64,000 nucleotides of DNA from a virus, in the IMG/VR virus record IMGVR_UViG_3300027801_002586, positions 1 to 64,000 of that record. The stretch is one strand, 5' to 3'. The notes below the pieces were generated by a model that did no database searches, was not told the origin of the DNA, and saw only the letters and a list, made by a program, of their open reading frames with translations. Numbering within the stretch: the first letter of the stretch is position 1; each line of letters starts with the position of its first letter. Below are positions 2,599 through 41,536 of this stretch, piece after piece. The position numbers were made by a program, and so were the translations under genes.

Positions 2599-2641
2599 TA
2601 CTTATATATAGACTGGGTTAAACAACAATAGGTTATTGAGA

Positions 2642-4138
2642 ATGAAAAAAAGAAAAATCTTAGGAATCAATGCACTTAACCACGATGCATGTGTTACCTT
2701 ATTACATGGTAATGAAATCTTGTTCGCTGGACATAGTGAACGATATAGTGGTATTAAAAACGATTCACTACTTAACAATGAAATCCTTGCCGATGTAAAA
2801 CAATATGGTGATTGGGATGAGGTTGTTTATTATGAACGACCTTATAGTAAGAAACTACGACAGTTATATGCAGGACAATATTCAGAAGTTTTCACGAGGA
2901 AGAATCTTCCCTTAACACATTTAAAACAATTCGGTATAGATAAGATACACCATTACGTTGACCATCATTTATCTCACGCATCAGCAGGATACTATACATC
3001 ACCTTATACAGAAGCAGCAATTGTTTGTATTGATGCAATTGGTGAATGGGAAACTTGTACTATATGGTACGCTAAAGATGGTAAGTTTAAAAAACGATAT
3101 TCAGTAAGATATCCAAACTCATTAGGATTGTGGTATAGTGCTATGACTCAAAGATTAGGATTGAAACCACAAGAAGATGAGTACATCTTAATGGGTATGG
3201 CAGGTTGGGGTAAAGTTATACCAACATTAAAGAAAGAGTTAAACCGAACCTTTTTCCATAAGGGAAAAGATTTATTAAAATTTAATAAAAATTTACATCG
3301 TGGATGTCTTGACTGGGATTCAGAAGTATATCCAGATGATGGTACAGATGAATGGAAATTCACTATAGCAGCAAACGTACAGAGTATATGTGAAGATAAG
3401 ATATATAACGTATTTGCAAAAACAAAACAATTAGTACCTGAAACCGATAACATAGTATATGGTGGTGGGGTTGCATTAAATTGTGTTGCTAATTCATTAG
3501 TGGCACACGAACTTTACCCAAGTTTATGGATTCTCCCGAATCCCGGTGATGGTGGTTCATCGTTAGGGAGTGCCGCATATATATTGGGTGAGCATGTGAA
3601 CTGGCATAATTGTTTCTTGGGTTACGATATTAAAGGAAAGTATCCAACCGAGCAACTCTTAAAAGAGCTTCTCAAAGGGAACATAGTCGGAGTCGCGAAC
3701 GGGAGAGCGGAGTTTGGACCTCGGGCTTTGGGCAACCGAACTTTGATGGCAGACCCACGTGGAGATAAGATTAAAGATAAGGTAAATAAAATTAAGAAAC
3801 GACAAGAGTTTCGACCATTTGCTCCTGCAGTATTAGAGGAACACGCTCACGAGATATTTGAAATGCCCGTGAGGAAATCTCAGTATATGCAGTATGTAGC
3901 GAAATGTAAATACCCAGAGAAGTATCCTGCTATATGTCATGTAGATAACACTTCGAGAGTACAGACAGTAAGTAAGGATGATAATCCAAACTTCTATAAT
4001 CTGATAAATGAATTTTACAAAACCACGGGTTGTCCTATGGTTCTCAATACCAGTCTGAATATTAAAGGACAACCCATTGTAAACACAAAACAAGATGGAA
4101 TAGATTTCACTAAACAATATGGCGTAAAAGTATTTTGA
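2642..4138 (+). CDS. Carbamoyltransferase (NodU/CmcH family)
   Basis: HDAC, ERYS, HHLSHA, DAIGE, GGVALNC, GRAEFGPRALGNR, FRPFAP, LNTSLN motifs. Confidence 0.95.
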   Translation: MKKRKILGINALNHDACVTLLHGNEILFAGHSERYSGIKNDSLLNNEILADVKQYGDWDEVVYYERPYSKKLRQLYAGQYSEVFTRKNLPLTHLKQFGIDKIHHYVDHHLSHASAGYYTSPYTEAAIVCIDAIGEWETCTIWYAKDGKFKKRYSVRYPNSLGLWYSAMTQRLGLKPQEDEYILMGMAGWGKVIPTLKKELNRTFFHKGKDLLKFNKNLHRGCLDWDSEVYPDDGTDEWKFTIAANVQSICEDKIYNVFAKTKQLVPETDNIVYGGGVALNCVANSLVAHELYPSLWILPNPGDGGSSLGSAAYILGEHVNWHNCFLGYDIKGKYPTEQLLKELLKGNIVGVANGRAEFGPRALGNRTLMADPRGDKIKDKVNKIKKRQEFRPFAPAVLEEHAHEIFEMPVRKSQYMQYVAKCKYPEKYPAICHVDNTSRVQTVSKDDNPNFYNLINEFYKTTGCPMVLNTSLNIKGQPIVNTKQDGIDFTKQYGVKVF

Positions 4139-4146
4139 AAAAGTAC

Positions 4147-4176
4147 TTGACTTTGATAGTAAAAAAGCCGTATATT
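4147..4176 (+). promoter_or_regulatory. Early promoter P2
   Basis: TTGACT-18-TATATT upstream of ORF 4192. Confidence 0.75.
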
Positions 4177-4191
4177 AAGGACAAATAAAAT

Positions 4192-4998
4192 ATGAATATA
4201 GGAATAATAGGTAAAGGATTTGTAGGGAATGCTATATCCGAGGGGTTTAAAACTCAAGGACATAACATTATTGCTCACGATATCCGATTAGAAACAAAGA
4301 TAGAAGATGTATTGGATTGTCCAATTGTTTATATATCAGTACCTACACCAAGTGCTGAAAATGGTGATTGTGATACCACGATAGTAGAGAGTGTATTACG
4401 AGAATTATATCATCTGAAGTATAGTGGATTTGTTTGTATCAAGAGTACAGTCAAACCAGGTTCACTTAGTAAGTGGAACGAACAATACGGGCAGATACTT
4501 AATCTAAGTTTCGTACCCGAGTTTCTTCGTGAGAGGTGTGCTGTAGAAGATTTCATACATAATAATAATGTATTGGTTGTTGGTACTGATGACCCTATCG
4601 CTGAATTATGTATTAAAGAATGTCACGGAATTTTACCTACACATACAGTCGTGATGAAACCGATTGAAGCTGAACTGATGAAATACTTCAGTAATAGTTA
4701 TAAAGCCATGAGAGTTACATTCGCTAATGCCTTCTATAAGATTTGTCAAGAGGTAGATGCTAACTATGATGTTGTTAAGGATACATTCTTATTTCATGGT
4801 ATAGGTGATGGACATTATTTAAAAGTGAATAAGCAGTTCGGTGGGTTTGGTGGTACTTGTTTACCAAAGGATACTAAAGGATTGGCTAACTTAGTTGATG
4901 AGTTAGGATTGGATATAGAACTATTCAGAACTATTGTAAATGATAATATCAAGTTTACTGCTGGGGAATCTGAACAAGAAAATAGGATAGAAATATAA
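4192..4998 (+). CDS. ugd: UDP-glucose/GDP-mannose dehydrogenase (short form)
   Basis: GKGFVG, VPTP, KSTV, PEFLRE, KYFSN, GFGGTCLPKD. Confidence 0.9.
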   Translation: MNIGIIGKGFVGNAISEGFKTQGHNIIAHDIRLETKIEDVLDCPIVYISVPTPSAENGDCDTTIVESVLRELYHLKYSGFVCIKSTVKPGSLSKWNEQYGQILNLSFVPEFLRERCAVEDFIHNNNVLVVGTDDPIAELCIKECHGILPTHTVVMKPIEAELMKYFSNSYKAMRVTFANAFYKICQEVDANYDVVKDTFLFHGIGDGHYLKVNKQFGGFGGTCLPKDTKGLANLVDELGLDIELFRTIVNDNIKFTAGESEQENRIEI

Positions 4999-5158
4999 TT
5001 ATGAGATATTTATATATGAGTGGAATGGTGGCTAATATGAAAGATTATGGTTCATCAACAAACAGAAATCGACCAACTGATATCTCTCATTGTGGGAATA
5101 TTAACCATACTATATTGGATATGGTTGTTGAAAAGAATACGCAAATAATAGGTTATTA

Positions 5159-6358
5159 ATGAAAAAATGTTATACTTACGATGATGTAAATATCGTTCCG
5201 AAATATTCGGAAGTTGAACATCGTGTAGATGTCAAACTCAATACACGATTTACACGGAATACAGAATTGACTATTCCAATAGTTGCTGCTCCTATGGATA
5301 CAGTCACAGAATATGATATGGCTGTCGAGATGATGGAATGGGGTGGTGTTGGTGTTATACATAGATTTAATACCATTGAAGAACAATCTAAGATGATGAA
5401 ATCATTACATCGCGAGTGGGTTAAATATTTTAAACCAATACCAGGAATTACAGATGGTACAGAAAGAACATTAGAAACCGAATGGCAAGAATGGTGGGAT
5501 AGTAGTGTAAGACATTGGAATAGTCCACCAACAAAATCGGATTGGGATGATTTAAAAGAAAGATTTTATTTTGCAGATGATATGATTCGTGATGATAAGA
5601 GTTGGTCTAAACTACCATTATGTGCCGCGGTAGGAGTTAATGGAGATTATTTAGAACGAGCAAGAGAATTAGCATGGAATGGATGTAATGTTCTACTTAT
5701 AGATGTAGCACATGGTCATCATAAAAATGTAGGAGAAGCCATTGAAGAAATCAAAAAAGACATATCAGGAATTGAAGTTATTGCAGGAAACGTTGCGACG
5801 TCCGAAGCCACGAGGTACTTATGTGAAAGAGAAGCAGATGGAATTAGAGTCGGAATCGGAAATGGTTCATTATGCGAAACGAGGATTAGAACAGGTATTG
5901 GCGTTCCCCAAGTTTCTGCTCTACTTGATTGCGTTAATTCTGCAGATGAGTTTGATGTTCCTATTATTGCCGATGGTGGTATTCGTAATATTGGTGATGT
6001 TTGTAAAGGATTGGCTTGTGGGGCTGATTCGGTTATGTTGGGAAGTTTGTTATCAGGTACCAAAGAATCACCTGGAGAAATTGAGAAAGTAGGTCAATGG
6101 CCTAATGAAAAGTTATTTAAAAAGTATAGAGGTTCGGCCTCAAGAGATTCAAAAGGTAGTGATAAAAATGTCGAAGGTAATCATAAAGTAATTCCATACA
6201 AAGGAAAAACAAAGCGTATATTACACGATATTACAGATGGAGTTCGTAGCTCTTTCAGTTATGTTGGTGCTAACAATATATCTGATTATCACACATTAGT
6301 AGAATTAGTAAACGTAACACACGCAGGTATGGTAGAAGCTAAACCACACTTGTTATAG
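5159..6358 (+). CDS. guaB: IMP dehydrogenase / GMP reductase family
   Basis: TYDDV, AAPMDTVTE, IDVAHGH, GIGNGSLCETR (catalytic Cys), IADGGIR, YRG. Confidence 0.9.
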   Translation: MKKCYTYDDVNIVPKYSEVEHRVDVKLNTRFTRNTELTIPIVAAPMDTVTEYDMAVEMMEWGGVGVIHRFNTIEEQSKMMKSLHREWVKYFKPIPGITDGTERTLETEWQEWWDSSVRHWNSPPTKSDWDDLKERFYFADDMIRDDKSWSKLPLCAAVGVNGDYLERARELAWNGCNVLLIDVAHGHHKNVGEAIEEIKKDISGIEVIAGNVATSEATRYLCEREADGIRVGIGNGSLCETRIRTGIGVPQVSALLDCVNSADEFDVPIIADGGIRNIGDVCKGLACGADSVMLGSLLSGTKESPGEIEKVGQWPNEKLFKKYRGSASRDSKGSDKNVEGNHKVIPYKGKTKRILHDITDGVRSSFSYVGANNISDYHTLVELVNVTHAGMVEAKPHLL

Positions 6359-6368
6359 GAGAAATAAA

Positions 6369-6533
6369 ATGCCAAGAACAAAGAAACTAACAAAGATAGA
6401 TAAATCCGCTATTAGAATTTCTTCGGATAGAAAATCTACAAGACGAATGAGTACTCGTAGGAAAGAAAAAAGTGTCTTTCTACAGCGGGTAATTGATGGG
6501 ATGAAAAAGTTTTTATCTTCACCATTTAAATAG
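6369..6533 (+). CDS. Small basic hypothetical protein (54 aa, not in ORF track)
   Basis: AGGAG SD, MPRTKKLTKIDKSAIRISSDRK...FLSSPFK. Confidence 0.55.
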   Translation: MPRTKKLTKIDKSAIRISSDRKSTRRMSTRRKEKSVFLQRVIDGMKKFLSSPFK

Positions 6534-6546
6534 ATATTTATACTAT

Positions 6547-6619
6547 GGGGCTGTAGCTCAGTTGGGAGAGCATCGCACTTGCACTGCGGAGGTCGCAGGT
6601 TCGATTCCTGTCAGCTCCA
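6547..6619 (+). tRNA. tRNA-Ala(UGC)
   Basis: GGGGCTG/CAGCTCC acceptor stem with G3:U70, anticodon loop CTTGCAC, GTTCGATTC T-loop; CCA not encoded. Confidence 0.97.
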
Positions 6620-6638
6620 CTTTAATTAGAGAGGATAT

Positions 6639-7130
6639 ATGCCGTTAAGTAGGTTTGGTAAAAGACATAAGAAAACCTTTGGTAAGAAGAAAGAAGAATG
6701 GGATGGTGATTTTAGAAAACCACCAAAGCCAGATTCTTATTATACCAAGATAAAAGGTAAGTGTAGATGGTGTAGTTATATGATAGTCCGAGATGATGAA
6801 ACCATAAACGAAAGAAGAAGTTGGCATAAAGAATGTGCAGGAGAGTATATGATTATATACCACTCTAAAGAACAGAGAGCACATTTAAGGAAAAGGGATA
6901 AGGGTAAATGTAACCATTGTGGAGTTATGGCGAAACGATGGGATTGTGACCATATCAGACCTTTGGTTGAACAGAAAGGTGTGATAGCAAAAGATTTAGA
7001 TTGGAGTTATTATAGTTTGGGTAACCTACAAACATTATGTAAAACCTGTCATAGAAAAAAAACAAATTCAGAAGTACATCTGAAAAAGAAGAGAAAAGTT
7101 AATTACAAGGAGACAAAAAAATGGGATTGA
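6639..7130 (+). CDS. HNH endonuclease
   Basis: CNHCG...DCDHIRPL...NLQTLCKTCHRKKT. Confidence 0.85.
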   Translation: MPLSRFGKRHKKTFGKKKEEWDGDFRKPPKPDSYYTKIKGKCRWCSYMIVRDDETINERRSWHKECAGEYMIIYHSKEQRAHLRKRDKGKCNHCGVMAKRWDCDHIRPLVEQKGVIAKDLDWSYYSLGNLQTLCKTCHRKKTNSEVHLKKKRKVNYKETKKWD

Positions 7131-28555: not shown

Positions 28556-28828
28556 ATGAATAATCAAGAATTAGTAGATTTGATAGTAAAGACATTTGAT
28601 GGTGTAATCATCGATGATTATGGTTGGGAACATTACACTATACCAAATAAGAAATATGATATTCGATTTGATGCATCTCGAATAGAATGGGCATGTGATT
28701 GTCCAGCATTTATGTACCGAAGAAAATTTAAGAAGAAGTATTGTAAACATATTATTGAGATACAGAGTAAAAAATTAGAACAACGGGTGGCAGATAGCAG
28801 AGGCCGTGCTGGTGCCAGAGTGGTCTAA
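28556..28828 (+). CDS. SWIM zinc-finger protein
   Basis: WACDCPAF...YCKHI. Confidence 0.8.
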   Translation: MNNQELVDLIVKTFDGVIIDDYGWEHYTIPNKKYDIRFDASRIEWACDCPAFMYRRKFKKKYCKHIIEIQSKKLEQRVADSRGRAGARVV

Positions 28829-28879
28829 TGGGGTGGATTGCAAATCCATTGTTCGTCGGTTCAAATCCGACCCAGCACT
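28806..28879 (+). tRNA. tRNA-Cys(GCA)
   Basis: GTGCTGG/CCAGCAC acceptor, GTGGA-TTGCAAA-TCCAT anticodon arm, GTTCAAATC T-loop, U73. Confidence 0.93.
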
Positions 28880-28902
28880 CAAAATATAAACGGAGATGAA
28901 AA

Positions 28903-30208: not shown

Positions 30209-30799
30209 ATGAATAAGGTAGTTGATTGTTTTAAACACGATAACCCAGTTATCCACAAAAAGTTAAGAGAGGTTTCAGTTGAAGAAGGACTTGAAATTGC
30301 CGCAGAACTATTTAAGATACTTAATGAACGAGGGGATGGCATCGGGTTGGCTGCTAATCAAGTTGGTATTGATGCTGCTGTTGCTGTACTTAATGTTCGC
30401 GAACCGATTATCTTAATTAACCCAAAAATACTTTCAAAAGAAAATGAGATACCTTATTATGAGGGATGTCTATCTTTCCCAAAGAAAGGTTGTCATACCA
30501 AACGATATGAAACCATACATATACAAACCGCACAGGAAGAGAGTGGTTGGGTGTTTAGTGGAGCATTAAGTGGAAGTGATGGTAAAGGTAGTTGGGAAAA
30601 ACATGATGCCGAAAATGACGAATTAAGATTGTTAGAAACCATATGTGTTCAACATGAGATTGACCATTTAAATGGGTTAACAATATTTGATAGGGAAGAT
30701 AAACCACAACCTATTATAAGTAAAAAGGCCGTGGGCAGGAATGAACCTTGTCCTTGTGGTAGTGGTAAGAAGTTCAAAAAATGTTGTATAGGAAAATAA
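30209..30799 (+). CDS. def: Peptide deformylase with C-terminal SEC-C motif
   Basis: [20 protein letters not shown]; [18 protein letters not shown]. Confidence 0.93.
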
Positions 30800-31669: not shown

Positions 31670-32152
31670 ATGCAAACATTTTTACCATATAGTGATTTTG
31701 AAAAATCAGCCAAAGTATTAGATTGGCGTAGACTTGGTAAACAACGAGTTGAGGGTATGCAGATTTTAAATGCTATCGAACAGAAACCAAGAAAAGATGG
31801 GAAACCATATAAGGGGTGGGTTAATCATCCTTGTAGTGTTATGTGGAAAGCATATGTACCAGCATTAAAACACTATACTAATATTATTATTACAGAGTGG
31901 ATTAATCGTGGATACAATAACAATATGAAATTCTATGCTGTTGATGATTTAGTAATACCACATTGGATAGGTGATGAGCGAATACATTCATCACACAGAG
32001 CTAACCTATTAAGAAAAGATTTTGAGTGGTATGGACAGTATGGTTGGGATGAAGGTCTCAAAGATGTAGAAACTGCACCCTATGTGTGGCATGATATTGA
32101 GGGTAAGTTTTATGAACAATTGATAGGAACGGGAGTTAGAAACTATTTATGA
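31670..32152 (+). CDS. Pyrimidine-dimer DNA glycosylase-like (MSMEG_6728/DenV family)
   Basis: MQTFLPY, LDWRRLGKQRVE, HP..MW, SHRANLLRKD. Confidence 0.85.
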   Translation: MQTFLPYSDFEKSAKVLDWRRLGKQRVEGMQILNAIEQKPRKDGKPYKGWVNHPCSVMWKAYVPALKHYTNIIITEWINRGYNNNMKFYAVDDLVIPHWIGDERIHSSHRANLLRKDFEWYGQYGWDEGLKDVETAPYVWHDIEGKFYEQLIGTGVRNYL

Positions 32153-32958: not shown

Positions 32959-33299
32959 GGGGCTGCTTGGTATCGACAGGTGTTATTTGACACTTGGGTG
33001 CAACGGAGTTTGAACAAGACTCGCTACAAAAGGTTCACTTTGATTAATTGGCACACAAGCTAATTTAACTTACGCTTACGCGTAACATCTTACTTATGAC
33101 ACCGATAGTAAGATAAGATGTCGACATCGGTAGACCACTCTTTTTATAGGTTGGAGTTAAACTTAATCTTTCAGTTAAGCCATTCTGTGTAAAATGGTGA
33201 AGTGGGTTGGAGATAACTACTTATTTGGAATCTCACTAAGTTGTGAATGACCCTTTGGAAAAAGCAGACTGGACGCGGGTTCGACTCCCGCCAGCTCCA
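32959..33299 (+). ncRNA. ssrA: tmRNA
   Basis: 5' GGGGCTG...GGTATCGAC, 3' GGACGCGGGTTCGACTCCCGCCAGCTCCA; internal tag ORF 33050-33085. Confidence 0.93.
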
Positions 33300-33333
33300 C
33301 AAAACAATAAAAAATGAAAAGGTTATATTTAAA

Positions 33334-34270: not shown

Positions 34271-35890
34271 ATGAAAAAATGGTTTTATGAGAGAAGTAAG
34301 TTCTCTGAGTTTAAATCAAATACGACTTATCATAAGTTGTTAGAGATGTCAGTAGAGGATTTCAATGAGTGGGCACGATTGCTAAGACAAGAAGTAACTA
34401 CTCAATGGGATGAGTATGGAACACCACCTGTAATCGGTAGAGATGAAGATGGTATTATTCAAAAATTCAAAAAATTAAAAGACAATCCTTGTAATTATTT
34501 AATTGAAGATAATACTGGTGATGATGAATCACTTGGTATAATTAAAAACTTCAATAAAGATGCAAGTAGTGTTAATCAATTCTTCCCAACAATGTTAAAA
34601 ACAAAAATCAGTATTGGTGCATCAGCCGATAATGGATTATCTATATACGACCACTTTGGTGACCCAGAGTTAGAAGATAAGTTTGTTCACATTATGCGTA
34701 GAGCAGTAAAGAAAGATTCTATGTATAGTTGGAGTAGAAGTATTGTAACCAAGAAAGATGAGAATCCATTTTGGAATGGACAGACTGGTAAAGAGTTTAT
34801 TAGAGATGTACACGAGGGTAAAGTGTTTACTGGTAAATACAAAGATACAGGTATTGTACTTGCAAGAGTAAAAGAAAATACTGTCGGTAATTATGGTACA
34901 ATGAATGAAGAGTTTAAAGGACATGGAAATGTTTATTTAACTGCAGAGGAAGTACAAGAGTGTAAAGATAGTGGTTACTTGAATGATACACAATTAAGTA
35001 ACATACCAGATATAGTTTCAAGCGAAACGAGTAAGACTGGTAATGTAACTAAGTTCTTATATTTGATTAGACATTATGACAAAACTATCGGAATCTTTCC
35101 AAAGATATTACAAGTGTTTAGATTAGCGTGTGGACAACCTGCAGTAAACTTTCCACCATTAACTGCTAAACTTTTGTATGAAAAATTTACAAATCATATA
35201 GAAAATCAAGAACAAAAATTTCATATCTATGACCCATCCGCAGGTTGGGGTGGTAGAATATTAGGAGCAATGAGTTCTCGTAAGAATATTCATTATGTAG
35301 GTACAGACCCTAACCCAGATAACTTAGGTAGATATCAAGCAGTTGCTGATTTCTATAATAGTAATTGTGTTGATGATTTTTCTGATAACTTCAATAAGTT
35401 TTTTGATGTAGAGAAACAATCAAACACGTATGAAGTATTTAGTGATGGGAGTGAATTAATATCTAACAATCCAGCATTTCAAAAATATAAAGGTAAGTTG
35501 GATGTAGTATTTACTTCGCCACCATACTTTAATCGTGAACAATATTCCCAAGATGAGAATCAGTCGTTCAAAGCCTATAGTGAGTATCAAGACTGGAGAG
35601 ATAACTTCTTAGAACCCACTTTACGAACTGCGTATGAGTATCTCAAACGAGATAGATATATCCTTTGGAACATCGCTAGTATAAAGATAGGAGCAAATAC
35701 CTACTATGATTTAGAGGGTGATAGTAGAAAAATATTAGAAGAGCTTGGTTGTGAGTATAAAGGAAAGCTAAAAATGTTAATGACAAGGATGATTGGCTTA
35801 GACCCAAGTAAGACTGGAATATTAAATTCAGTACAATATGATAATAATGTTTATAAATTTGAACCTATATTTGTGTACTATAAAAGATGA
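34271..35890 (+). CDS. SAM-dependent amino-methyltransferase-fold DNA modification enzyme
   Basis: YDPSAGWGGR (motif I) and FTSPPYF (motif IV). Confidence 0.85.
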   Translation: MKKWFYERSKFSEFKSNTTYHKLLEMSVEDFNEWARLLRQEVTTQWDEYGTPPVIGRDEDGIIQKFKKLKDNPCNYLIEDNTGDDESLGIIKNFNKDASSVNQFFPTMLKTKISIGASADNGLSIYDHFGDPELEDKFVHIMRRAVKKDSMYSWSRSIVTKKDENPFWNGQTGKEFIRDVHEGKVFTGKYKDTGIVLARVKENTVGNYGTMNEEFKGHGNVYLTAEEVQECKDSGYLNDTQLSNIPDIVSSETSKTGNVTKFLYLIRHYDKTIGIFPKILQVFRLACGQPAVNFPPLTAKLLYEKFTNHIENQEQKFHIYDPSAGWGGRILGAMSSRKNIHYVGTDPNPDNLGRYQAVADFYNSNCVDDFSDNFNKFFDVEKQSNTYEVFSDGSELISNNPAFQKYKGKLDVVFTSPPYFNREQYSQDENQSFKAYSEYQDWRDNFLEPTLRTAYEYLKRDRYILWNIASIKIGANTYYDLEGDSRKILEELGCEYKGKLKMLMTRMIGLDPSKTGILNSVQYDNNVYKFEPIFVYYKR

Positions 35891-36573
35891 TAATAATTAA
35901 AGCAAACTCACCAACAGATGCTTGGATACAATCACACGAGTATCTTTTAGCAAATGGTAACAAAGATGTGATGAATGAAAGTATTAATATGTCGGTAGAG
36001 ATAGAAGATAACTTCGATGTCGATATAAAATTTGATGGAGTATTCAGAGAAATCTTTGGTGATGATAGAATAGATTATGCAAGTTCAGTTACATTTGTTA
36101 AACCAACAGAACATCCGTTTATGGATGAGTTACAATACAAACAGAATGATATCAAAGTAAAGTGGAATAAAACTTATTGGGGTAGAATGATTAATTGGGA
36201 TAATAGTTTTAATCAAATAGAACAAGTTATTAAAAGATTAAAAGAACATAAGAATAGTAAAACAATTGCAATGAGTATCTATGACCCAAAATCAGATGGT
36301 AGAAAAACTATGAGTGGAATGCCATGTTTATTATCGATAGATTTAAAACCACGAAAAGATGGATTGTATTTAACAGCATTCTTTCGTAGTATGAGAATTA
36401 GTAAAAGTGGTTATGCTGATTGGATGGCGTTGTGTGAATTAGGTAAGTTCTTATGTGAACAAGCAAATTTAAAATTAAAACGAGTTACCACAATTGGCGG
36501 TTCGGTACATATTGGGGATATGAATAACGAAAAGAAAAATGTGAGGGAGTTGCTTAGTGTGTGGAATAGTTAG
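35887..36573 (+). CDS. Thymidylate synthase/dCMP hydroxymethylase superfamily protein
   Basis: Y.GR, MPCL catalytic Cys, RSMRISKSGYAD, GSVHI. Confidence 0.8.
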   Translation: MIIIKANSPTDAWIQSHEYLLANGNKDVMNESINMSVEIEDNFDVDIKFDGVFREIFGDDRIDYASSVTFVKPTEHPFMDELQYKQNDIKVKWNKTYWGRMINWDNSFNQIEQVIKRLKEHKNSKTIAMSIYDPKSDGRKTMSGMPCLLSIDLKPRKDGLYLTAFFRSMRISKSGYADWMALCELGKFLCEQANLKLKRVTTIGGSVHIGDMNNEKKNVRELLSVWNS

Positions 36574-40004: not shown

Positions 40005-40727
40005 ATGCCACCAAAAGCAAAAAAGACATCACCACGATATTACTTTCATCAAGGAACTGAAGATGCAATCGTCAGATTGAATAAAGAAACTCGTGCTCAT
40101 ATGAAACAACGAATTTACAATGAACATATTCGCACACCATTTGAGAAACTTGCTGAGAATATAATTCATACATTTAAATTTTATTACTTTGATGTTCCAT
40201 CGGATGATGTGAAACACGAAGTGGTATCATTCTTATATATGAACATCCACAAATTTGCTGAAGGTAAGGGAAAAGCTTTTTCATACTTTAGTATTGTTGC
40301 TAAGAATTATTTAATTTTACATAACAACAATAACTACAAGAAGATGAAACAACATGATTCTGAAGATGTAATGGATTATAAAAGAGACCCTGTCGGAGAA
40401 CTTCGAGGTAAGGAATCTAAATCTATGGCAATGGAATATATAGAACAACTTGCGGATTATTGGAGAAATAATTTAACAACAGTCTTTAAACGAAAGAAAG
40501 ATTTGGATGTTGCTAATTCTGTAGTGGAGTTAATTGATATGAGACATAATATTGATAACTTTAATAAGAAAGCATTATACATTCTTATTCGTGAGATGAC
40601 GGGTTCTAATACACAACACATTACTCGTGTAATTAATGTGATGAAGAAACATCATAATAATCTACACAAGGCTTATGTAGCTACTGGTTCAGTTGATACT
40701 AAACGAACTGGTAGTTGGTTTGAGTGA
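40005..40727 (+). CDS. Putative late sigma factor (gp55/sigma region 2-like)
   Basis: KLAENI...DVKHE...KF.EGKGKAFSYFSIVAKNYLI resembles sigma region 2; sits before structural genes. Confidence 0.55.
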   Translation: MPPKAKKTSPRYYFHQGTEDAIVRLNKETRAHMKQRIYNEHIRTPFEKLAENIIHTFKFYYFDVPSDDVKHEVVSFLYMNIHKFAEGKGKAFSYFSIVAKNYLILHNNNNYKKMKQHDSEDVMDYKRDPVGELRGKESKSMAMEYIEQLADYWRNNLTTVFKRKKDLDVANSVVELIDMRHNIDNFNKKALYILIREMTGSNTQHITRVINVMKKHHNNLHKAYVATGSVDTKRTGSWFE

Positions 40728-41536
40728 AACTCTATAAACAAGATTGGGATTATCGGAAAATAAATACCGATGAATATCCACAATTAAAAGCGATTACATC
40801 ACAACCAAATTCTTTTTGGATAATAAGTAATCCTAAAAAACCACTCAAACGAGTTACAACAAGAATACGAAGATTATGTAGAAGAGCACATCCATACCAA
40901 CCTATTATAGTTTTATATGCTATACCTGGTAGAGATGTAGGTGGACATTCAAAGGGTGGGTTATCTGATAAACAATATATAAAATATATTGGAGATATTG
41001 CAAAAGGTATTGGTTCATATAAACCAATAGTAATATTCGAACCTGATGCTATTCCACATATGAGAAGGATGAATTTCTTTCAACGAACAAGTCGAACAAG
41101 GTTAATCAGAAAATCTTTAAAACTCTTATCACAATGTAGTGCACAAATTTATCTTGATATAGGACATCCCAATTGGTTAAAGGTTGGAGATGCGTCTACT
41201 TATTTAAATCTTTTTAATGATAATAAGATAAAAGGCTTTTCAGTTAATGTAAGTAACTTTGTTACTACGGATAAATGTATTCGATGGGGTGATAAAGTTT
41301 CCGATAGAACCGATTTAAATTATATTATAGATACATCAAGGAATGGTACTGAAGTATGGGAAACCTTTAATCCAGAAGAAATGAAACTTGGAGAAAAACC
41401 AACAATCAGAACTTCATCAAGAAGTTGTGATGCTTATCTTTGGATTAAAACACCAGGTGAAAGTGATGGTGCCGTAAATGGTTGGCCTAAAGCTGGTAGA
41501 TTTGATGCTGAAAAAACCTTATCTCTTATAAACTAA
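40724..41536 (+). CDS. Glycoside hydrolase family 6
   Basis: YAIPGRD, FEPDA, YLDIGHPNW, NVSNF, IDTSRNG, DAYLWIKTPGESDG. Confidence 0.9.
   Translation: MKLYKQDWDYRKINTDEYPQLKAITSQPNSFWIISNPKKPLKRVTTRIRRLCRRAHPYQPIIVLYAIPGRDVGGHSKGGLSDKQYIKYIGDIAKGIGSYKPIVIFEPDAIPHMRRMNFFQRTSRTRLIRKSLKLLSQCSAQIYLDIGHPNWLKVGDASTYLNLFNDNKIKGFSVNVSNFVTTDKCIRWGDKVSDRTDLNYIIDTSRNGTEVWETFNPEEMKLGEKPTIRTSSRSCDAYLWIKTPGESDGAVNGWPKAGRFDAEKTLSLIN

Follow-up and report, generated by a model that had tools for sequence, protein, structure and literature searches.

The DNA analyzed here, hereafter the window, comprises 64,000 nucleotides (positions 1 to 64,000) of the IMG/VR virus record IMGVR_UViG_3300027801_002586 and represents part of the genome of an uncultured tailed marine phage, with a G+C content of approximately 33% and all of its long open reading frames (ORFs) on the plus strand. 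The source record spans 82,069 bp, with an estimated completeness of approximately 45% (CheckV). Our subject is a gene encoding a protein related to thymidylate synthase (TS), hereafter the TS-like protein; this gene stands second in a run of four that are translationally coupled. Its start codon overlaps the stop codon of an upstream methyltransferase-like gene by 4 nucleotides (ATGA), an AsnB-like amidotransferase gene overlaps its own end by 17 nucleotides, and a gene for a pyridoxal phosphate (PLP) protein overlaps the amidotransferase gene by 10 nucleotides. A baseplate module lies downstream.

Table 1. Genes and active-site features of the TS-like operon, with positions in the window (aa, amino acids).
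Feature	Position	Strand	Description
SPPY DNA amino-methyltransferase-like protein, 539 aa	34271..35890	+	Pfam N6_N4_Mtase, E 1.3e-6; phrog_498
TS-fold protein, 228 aa	35887..36573	+	ATG start; ORF call, Pfam match and AlphaFold2 model
Catalytic nucleophile motif, Pro146-Cys147-Leu148	36322..36330	+	Corresponds to E. coli P145-C146-H147
Phosphate clamp to N177 site, residues 167-178	36385..36420	+	RSMRISKSGYAD
AsnB-like glutamine amidotransferase / PP-loop amide synthetase, 501 aa	36557..38062	+	GTG start; Cys2; SGGIDS
PLP fold-type-II protein, 281 aa	38053..38898	+	Homologue of Pseudomonas phage M6 gp52
HD/metal-dependent phosphohydrolase-like protein, 257 aa	38971..39744	+	phrog_28876, 3.3e-12

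The TS-like protein belongs to the thymidylate synthase superfamily, as a preliminary description of this locus had proposed from the nucleotide sequence, and it retains the catalytic nucleophile. It exceeded the cut-off of Pfam PF00303 (Thymidylat_synt; 34.4 bits against 24.3, E 1.7e-8) and also matched PHROG thymidylate synthase families, and an AlphaFold2 model built from 46 homologues (predicted local distance difference test 94.1, predicted TM-score 0.92) showed the alpha/beta fold of the superfamily. Foldseek matched this model with a probability of 1.00 to MilA, AfhB and classical TS, and VIA-align gave Z scores in the range of 17-20 over residues 1-227, the highest being that for AfhB, the deoxycytidine monophosphate (dCMP) hydroxylase of phage HY126 (Z 20.3, root-mean-square deviation 2.7, 198 residues, 21% identity), followed by MilA, a CMP hydroxymethylase (Z 19.6), and classical TS (Z approximately 17.4). 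The best sequence match of the family in the PDB was also MilA (E 1.9e-8).

Among curated families, the best match was the methanogen-type TS, NCBIfam TIGR03283 (E 3.8e-23), which was matched end to end (protein residues 3-213 on profile positions 2-197 of 201) with 82.1 bits against a cut-off of 174.55, whereas the ThyA models scored only approximately 19 bits against cut-offs of 327-405. Because the alignment of the model to the 316-residue L. casei TS covers only residues 1-276 of that enzyme, the C-terminal part of classical TS, which closes over the folate, has no counterpart in the TS-like protein.

Placement of the active-site residues was examined by both spacing and alignment. The distances of 20 residues from the catalytic Cys to the clamp Arg, and of +11 from that Arg to the Asn or Asp at the 177 site, are the same in E. 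coli ThyA (C146, R166, D169 and N177), T4 gp42 (C148, R168, D171 and D179), RB69 gp48 (C163, R183, N186 and D194) and the TS-like protein of the window (C147, R167, R170 and D178). Within RSMRISKSGYAD, Arg167-Ser168 make up the phosphate clamp, Arg170 stands at the D169 site and Asp178 at the N177 site, and Lys173-x-Gly175-Tyr176 is a signature of the family. Alignments of the family profile to MilA, AfhB and T4 td contained no gaps between the Arg and the last-strand His, and they set Asp178 on N177 and Arg170 on D169. An hhalign comparison of the family with RB69 gp48 (probability 94.9%, E 4.4e-8, 198 columns) was likewise ungapped through this stretch and placed the residues identically. 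The by-eye placement in the preliminary description was therefore right, including its assignment of an Asp to the 177 site, which these four computed alignments and the spacing bear out against one dissenting alignment taken up below. The hhalign comparison with T4 gp42 was insignificant and uninformative (probability 1.2%).

A word-indexed search recovered 123 relatives of the TS-like protein, nearly all of 220-240 residues, from marine, freshwater and other metagenomes, and residue conservation was counted over 164 distinct family sequences. Eighteen positions were identical in all 164 (P146, C147, R167, S168, K173, G175, Y176, H208, Y97, R100, E31, K125, N109, Q110, D137, P155, R156 and E215), and position 178 was Asp in 163 and Glu in one. 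The invariant charged residues that are the family's own are E31, R54, R61, D63, R100, D152, K154, R156, K173 and Y176. The residue corresponding to L143 was Gly in 79 sequences, Ser in 60 and Lys in 25.

Asp169 of ThyA contacts the pterin. The preliminary description had stressed an unusual Arg in its place, and Arg170 is indeed present in the window protein, but it is not conserved: position 170 was Arg in 129 sequences, Ala in 34 and Pro in one, and Asp or Asn in none. Since Arg alternates with Ala, the signal is the loss of Asp169 rather than the gain of Arg. The clade accordingly shows a third state (Arg or Ala) at the 169 site, together with an invariant pocket of its own.

An exhaustive search with the profile, covering 1.84 billion representatives, yielded 3368 matches at E <= 1e-3 but only 18 at E <= 1e-30, and the sharp drop in score after approximately 13 full-length representatives indicates that the TS-like clade is well bounded. 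Motifs could be extracted for 100 of the top 146 matches, and in these nearest representatives the residue pair at the 169 and 177 sites was Asp/Asn in 49, Asp/Asp in 28, Arg/Asp in seven, Ala/Asp in five and another combination in 11. Asp was thus kept at the 169 site in 78 of 100, compared with none of the 164 family members, which agrees with the earlier claim that a near-invariant folate-site residue has been replaced; Arg or Ala at 169 together with Asp at 177 occurred only in the 12 members of the family itself. Some of the Asp169/Asp177 representatives are fused to NUDIX or Ham1 domains. Judged from these sequences, the clade is set apart by the loss of Asp169 combined with Asp177.

The replacement of the PCH motif of ThyA by PCL, also singled out in the preliminary description, is real but not peculiar to this protein. 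Position 148 was Leu in 98 family members, Met in 63 and Cys in three, and in the 100 nearest representatives the residue after the Cys was Leu in 50, Met in 16, Ile in 16 and Val in eight, 90 in all, and never His, making PCL a trait of the whole short-TS group.

The TS-like clade is widespread in large marine and freshwater phages. A scan of IMG/VR found 80 viral loci with a TS-like gene, many of them truncated by contig ends, at which homologues of the partner genes stood beside it in 64 (methyltransferase-like), 74 (AsnB-like) and 70 (PLP) cases, so that the TS-family gene was found linked to relatives of enzymes that tailor C5 substituents in DNA. In the gene maps examined, this cassette is surrounded by genes for DnaB-like helicase, ribonucleotide reductase and PolB, and each of these gene clusters was present in 32-37 of the 80 loci. 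A tblastn search of isolate phages with the TS-like protein returned only two matches, of 27% identity over half its length, which argues that the family has no cultured member, and a blastn search of isolate phages with the operon gave no match.

In the 539-residue protein, only the C-terminal approximately 250 residues are methyltransferase-like (motif I ...PSAGWGG..., motif IV SPPY), in agreement with tblastn matches to phage DNA methylases that cover only residues approximately 255-538; the N-terminal approximately 275 residues are of unknown kind, and an atlas search with this part found only unnamed viral clusters, all below 0.9. One to four paralogues of the methyltransferase-like protein occur per locus. 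The jumbo-phage loci L019, L028, L053, L079 and L080 have two to four such SPPY paralogues, of approximately 400 residues, around the TS-like gene.

The AsnB-like protein of the window is a complete enzyme of the AsnB type and matched Pfam Asn_synthase (7e-42) and GATase_7 (7e-34) as well as TIGR01536 (1.2e-87). Its best isolate match was gp124 of Streptomyces phage TurkishDelight (32.5% identity, E 2e-67), which adjoins ParB-like and methyltransferase genes; the methyltransferase-like protein showed no similarity to gp123 of that phage. The AsnB-like protein lacks the glutaminase domain in nine distinct loci. In L019, L028 and L053 it is reduced to the PP-loop domain.

The 281-residue PLP protein matched M6 gp52 (YP_001294560) in tblastn with E 1e-18 and 95% coverage, and hhalign of its family with gp52 (probability 99.8%, E 1.4e-28) set the invariant Lys37 on Lys36 of gp52. 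Where the PLP gene is missing, in five gene maps, a 450-residue radical S-adenosylmethionine (SAM) protein is present. Membership of the HD phosphohydrolase-like protein in the module is doubtful, because its homologue (16 of 80 loci) follows the operon only in near relatives. Searches of the operon proteins with Pfam and PHROG revealed neither a 5-hydroxymethyl kinase nor an amino-acid:DNA transferase, and the operon holds no glycosyltransferase or nucleoside diphosphate (NDP)-sugar genes.

The metagenomic representative P0128 (676 residues) carries an intact TS-like domain, RSNAVSKAGYAD, together with a radical SAM domain bearing the motif CxxxCxxC, and is a natural fusion linking the two activities. 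Positions 3926-6888 of locus L072 serve for comparison with this fusion. Two other long ORFs were rejected as fusions. The 710-residue TS::AsnB ORF at L075 (8001-10130, in frame) is missing the final TS helix, with the invariant Glu215, as well as the N-terminal 17 residues of the amidotransferase, among them the catalytic Cys; it is probably a deletion or assembly error rather than a working fusion. The 484-residue ORF of L017 (7233-8684) is a GIY-YIG/NUMOD3 homing endonuclease, directly upstream of the TS-like gene, that the ORF caller read in frame with it; its presence suggests mobile-element traffic at the locus.

Five virus records bearing the module, 93-100% complete, were searched for ThyA, ThyX, MazG, dCMP deaminase and CmoA. 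Full-length canonical ThyA was present in two of them (E 2.6e-93 and 3.4e-69) and ThyX in two (E approximately 1e-46), and CmoA (TIGR00740) was found in none of the five. Because ThyA or ThyX coexists with the TS-like protein in four of the five, the latter is not the thymidylate synthase of these phages.

TS homologues set the chemistry of most of the known phage pyrimidine hypermodifications. We propose, with a probability of only about 0.4, that the TS-like protein has a rebuilt co-substrate site, forms a product other than 5-hydroxymethyl- or 5-hydroxy-dCMP, and carries out the first step, at the level of the nucleotide, in a so far undescribed hypermodification of cytosine. That a 5-substituted dCMP would enter the phage DNA and there be tailored is inferred from the TS fold and its constraint, the retained nucleophile and clamp, Asp178, the loss of Asp169, the private invariant residues and the linkage to the partner genes. 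The largest single share of probability goes to a rebuilt co-substrate site because the family carries neither the Asp169/acidic-143 nor the Asn169/Glu143 signature. According to PMC13326640, the change of Asp169 to Asn marks the switch from one-carbon transfer to flavin-dependent hydroxylation in the TS superfamily, and the hydroxymethylases have an acidic residue at the L143 site while the flavin hydroxylases have the Asn169/Glu143 signature. The preliminary description had suggested a dCMP-acting enzyme with possibly non-folate chemistry and a product other than 5-hydroxymethyl-dCMP. Action on dCMP is partly supported, since Asp178 is near-invariant and the nearest solved relatives act on CMP or dCMP; the non-folate chemistry and the different product we infer from the residues and the partners.

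In the proposed pathway, Cys147 would add to C6 of dCMP while Asp178 reads N3 and N4, and the resulting C5 nucleophile would attack an electrophile held in the rebuilt pocket, whose mode would differ both from the classical methylene-folate one (Asp169) and from that of the flavin enzymes (Asn169). The 5-substituted dCMP would then be phosphorylated and polymerized into phage DNA. The AsnB-like enzyme could convert a carboxylate to an amide, on DNA or just before incorporation, and the gp52-like PLP enzyme could remove the alpha-carboxylate of a tethered amino-acid-like group, with the radical SAM enzyme taking the operon place of the PLP enzyme in some lineages. The SPPY methyltransferase-like paralogues would attach a further group, probably by methylation. 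The end product would be an amine- or amide-bearing cytosine that shields the DNA from host nucleases.

A narrower version of this proposal, which we consider possible and on balance doubtful, is that the enzyme forms a C-C or C-heteroatom bond between C5 of dCMP and a co-substrate other than methylene-folate or flavin-activated oxygen. The candidate co-substrate is a carboxylate- or amino-acid-bearing electrophile of two or three carbons, which the invariant Arg, Lys and Asp residues would hold, and the direct product would be a 5-(amino/carboxy-alkyl)cytosine nucleotide. Such a product would make kinase and transferase steps unnecessary, leaving the AsnB-like, gp52-like or radical SAM and methyltransferase-like enzymes to finish the base. 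If true, this would be a third chemistry for the TS superfamily and would yield a new natural DNA base.

Several observations weigh against a rebuilt site that acts on dCMP. Position 170 may simply be unconstrained, with Arg and Ala alternating, and folate use would be compatible with the loss of Asp169 alone. The hhalign comparison with the single E. coli ThyA sequence (probability 80%) placed Gly175, not Asp178, at N177; in this alignment a helix is shifted by three residues and a second gap compensates. Because there is no net indel, and the four other alignments and the conserved spacing contradict it, we take this placement as an alignment artefact and keep it as a dissent. TS is an obligate homodimer in which R126' and R127' are lent to the phosphate site of the neighboring subunit. 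This pair is only half kept in the family, K125 being invariant and the next residue being Arg in 84 sequences, Thr in 59 and Met in 18, and no equivalent of Arg21 could be placed in the TS-like protein, so that a free 5'-monophosphate substrate is not certain.

The proposed order of steps is also a guess, since amidation and decarboxylation would compete for one carboxylate unless the transferred group has two. Furthermore, a full replacement kit of the T4 type is not evident in the relatives: among the five near-complete records, MazG was found in two and dCMP deaminase in three, and searches of the closest complete relative (G001) found none of MazG, dCMP deaminase, ThyA and ThyX. The source record of the window likewise yielded no MazG, PRA-PH or dCMP deaminase, which is uninformative at a completeness of only approximately 45%. 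Finally, the TS-like gene is partly covered by RNA-library contigs from three studies (X15, X16 and X18), which are compatible with its expression; DNA carry-over is possible, and these contigs do not prove transcription. Operon stretches without such contigs carry no evidence of silence.

The alternative that survives best, itself unlikely, is that the TS-like protein acts as a conventional dCMP 5-hydroxymethylase of the T4 gp42 or MilA type, dependent on folate or a pterin, and that the partner enzymes would decorate the hydroxymethyl group of its product, 5-hydroxymethyl-dCMP, on DNA. The Asp at the N177 site, the standing of MilA as best PDB sequence match and as one of the top fold matches, and the pterin-using methanogen-type TS as best family-level relative all fit this explanation, as does the fact that the known amino-acid-type hypermodifications employing a gp52-like decarboxylase all begin at a 5-hydroxymethyl pyrimidine (PMC8989533). 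MilA (Streptomyces, PDB 5b6d/5jnh) and gp42 share with the family the TS fold, the Cys nucleophile and the cytosine-type Asp. However, both keep Asp169 (RAND in MilA, RSND in gp42) and, according to PMC13326640, an acidic residue at the L143 site, whereas the TS-like family has neither. The operon also lacks the 5-hydroxymethyl kinase and the amino-acid:DNA transferase that activate and substitute the hydroxymethyl group in known pathways, and the hhalign comparison with gp42 lends no support. The methanogen-type TS itself shares the short architecture and the aliphatic residue after the Cys, but the nearest short TS-like representatives are mostly Asp169/Asn177 or Asp169/Asp177, in contrast to the Arg or Ala and Asp of this family.

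Less likely still is a flavin-dependent 5-hydroxy-dCMP synthase resembling HY126 AfhB (PDB 9iqu/9iqc), RB69 gp48 or DLP3 gp80, with the 5-OH alkylated by the methyltransferase-like proteins and further tailored. RB69 gp48 is a validated 5-hydroxy-dCMP synthase and DLP3 gp80 belongs to the same group (PMC13326640). These phage-encoded enzymes share with the TS-like protein a short TS fold of approximately 230 residues without the long C-terminal part of classical TS, the catalytic Cys, the Arg-Ser clamp, an Asp at the 177 site, the loss of Asp169 and, if our proposal holds, a position at the start of cytosine hypermodification. In addition, AfhB is the best structural match, at similar length, and gp48 aligns over nearly the whole protein. 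In contrast, the diagnostic Asn169 (PMC13326640) occurs in none of the 164 family sequences, which have Arg or Ala there, and the L143-to-Glu change of gp48 and AfhB is replaced by Gly, Ser or Lys. The family further differs in its roughly ten specific invariant charged residues, and R54, D63, R100, D152, K154, K173, G175 and Y176 have no counterpart in gp48. The partners differ as well: known 5-hydroxycytosine systems are accompanied by sugar-nucleotide enzymes and glycosyltransferases, which are absent from the operon, whereas the TS-like gene is accompanied by an amidotransferase, a PLP decarboxylase or radical SAM enzyme and a methyltransferase-like protein.

An even smaller likelihood attaches to a substrate other than a free deoxycytidine nucleotide, whether cytosine in DNA or RNA, CMP or a non-nucleotide compound, or to a role of the TS-like protein as a scaffold for its partners. 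The partly kept phosphate-binding arginine pair (K125, then Arg, Thr or Met) would be consistent with such a change. Tyr209 of TS contacts the 3'-OH, and this site is Gly in 87 family members, Arg in 35 and Phe in 18. Among the close fold relatives, MilA uses a ribonucleotide as its substrate, and each of the three partner families has relatives active on polymeric DNA. On the other side, Arg167-Ser168 and the catalytic Cys are invariant, the characterized superfamily members in the literature and PDB titles consulted all act on a mononucleotide, and the cassette stands among genes of nucleotide metabolism and replication, including ribonucleotide reductase. That the protein is the real thymidylate synthase of the phage, converting dUMP to dTMP, as the Pfam, PHROG and source annotations would have it, is highly improbable given the Asp rather than Asn at the 177 site in all but one of the sequences, the lack of Asp169 and of the classical C-terminal part, the score of less than half the cut-off of the best TS equivalog model (82 bits against 174.6), and the canonical ThyA or ThyX alongside it in four of five near-complete relatives.

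Two described pathways bear comparison with the proposed cytosine hypermodification. The first is the thymidine hypermodification of phages M6 and ViI, in which, according to PMC8989533, a TS-family enzyme makes the handle and a PLP decarboxylase of the gp52/gp226 type sculpts the amino acid tethered at C5; M6 gp52 and ViI gp226 decarboxylate amino acids that are attached at thymine C5 in DNA. The M6 pathway also uses a radical SAM enzyme by that account; the radical SAM protein of the TS-like loci has no similarity by BLAST to M6 gp53. According to the same source, the M6 and ViI pathways start from dUMP (giving 5-hydroxymethyldeoxyuridine, 5-hmdU) and depend on two enzymes that the TS-like operon lacks, a 5-hmdU DNA kinase and an amino-acid:DNA transferase; no AsnB-like enzyme figures in either pathway as described there.

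The second is the CmoA/CmoX/CmoY system of Synechococcus phage S-B43, where CmoY, an AsnB homologue, ligates glycine to 5-carboxymethylcytosine in DNA, and a primary amide is the predicted product of a sister cluster of CmoY that has a glutaminase domain (PMC12783734). With this system the operon has in common an asparagine-synthetase homologue and, if our proposal holds, an amide on the C5 substituent of DNA cytosine. S-B43 has a CmoX of the C5-methyltransferase type (SPPC) and the carboxy-SAM (Cx-SAM) synthase CmoA (PMC12783734), neither of which occurs in the TS-like system; compared with that route, the TS-fold enzyme would supply the C5 handle.

A full-text literature search found no paper describing this gene combination or the TS-like clade. 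The proposed role, that of a phage TS-family enzyme initiating DNA hypermodification, is of a known kind, and there is a real chance that its reaction is one without precedent in the superfamily. Identification of the product would probably extend the list of natural DNA bases and bring a further reaction to a textbook enzyme family; it would, in addition, account for the resistance of these abundant phages to host nucleases and give new tools for DNA labelling.

DNA nearly identical to the operon was present, at a level of at least half of the sampled words, in 14 marine or seawater runs, nine of which may be the source of this DNA. Within the 7.5 kb examined, the depth of the RNA-library contigs peaked by far at 33000-33250 (approximately 168, 52, 108 and 35 in four runs), over a phage transfer-messenger RNA (tmRNA) gene at 32959-33300 on the plus strand, which matched the full-length model of Rfam RF00023 (84.4 bits, E 1.3e-32) and for which ARAGORN gave the tag peptide GTQANLTYAYA*.

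Elsewhere in the window, the plus strand encodes a Nol-like carbamoyltransferase (2636-4138; phrog_1601, E 3e-103), followed to approximately 16300 by UDP-glucose dehydrogenase-like, dehydrogenase, FabG-like reductase, glycosyltransferase-like and sulfotransferase-like genes. Carbamoyltransferases of a related family produce 5-carbamoyloxymethylcytosine (PMC8670742); because the present copy lies 32 kb from the TS-like gene and among sugar genes, this region is more likely a glycan-modifying auxiliary cluster. A 270-residue protein (40724-41536, plus strand) contains a glycosyl hydrolase family 6 domain (Pfam E 1.3e-40), a family unusual in phage, and had no PHROG match. Other genes on the plus strand include a peptide deformylase that carries a SEC-C zinc motif at its C terminus (30209-30799; E 9e-26 and 2e-10), a denV-like pyrimidine-dimer DNA glycosylase (31670-32152; E 1e-22) and phage-borne tRNA-Ala (TGC) and tRNA-Cys (GCA) genes (6547-6620 and 28806-28880, respectively).

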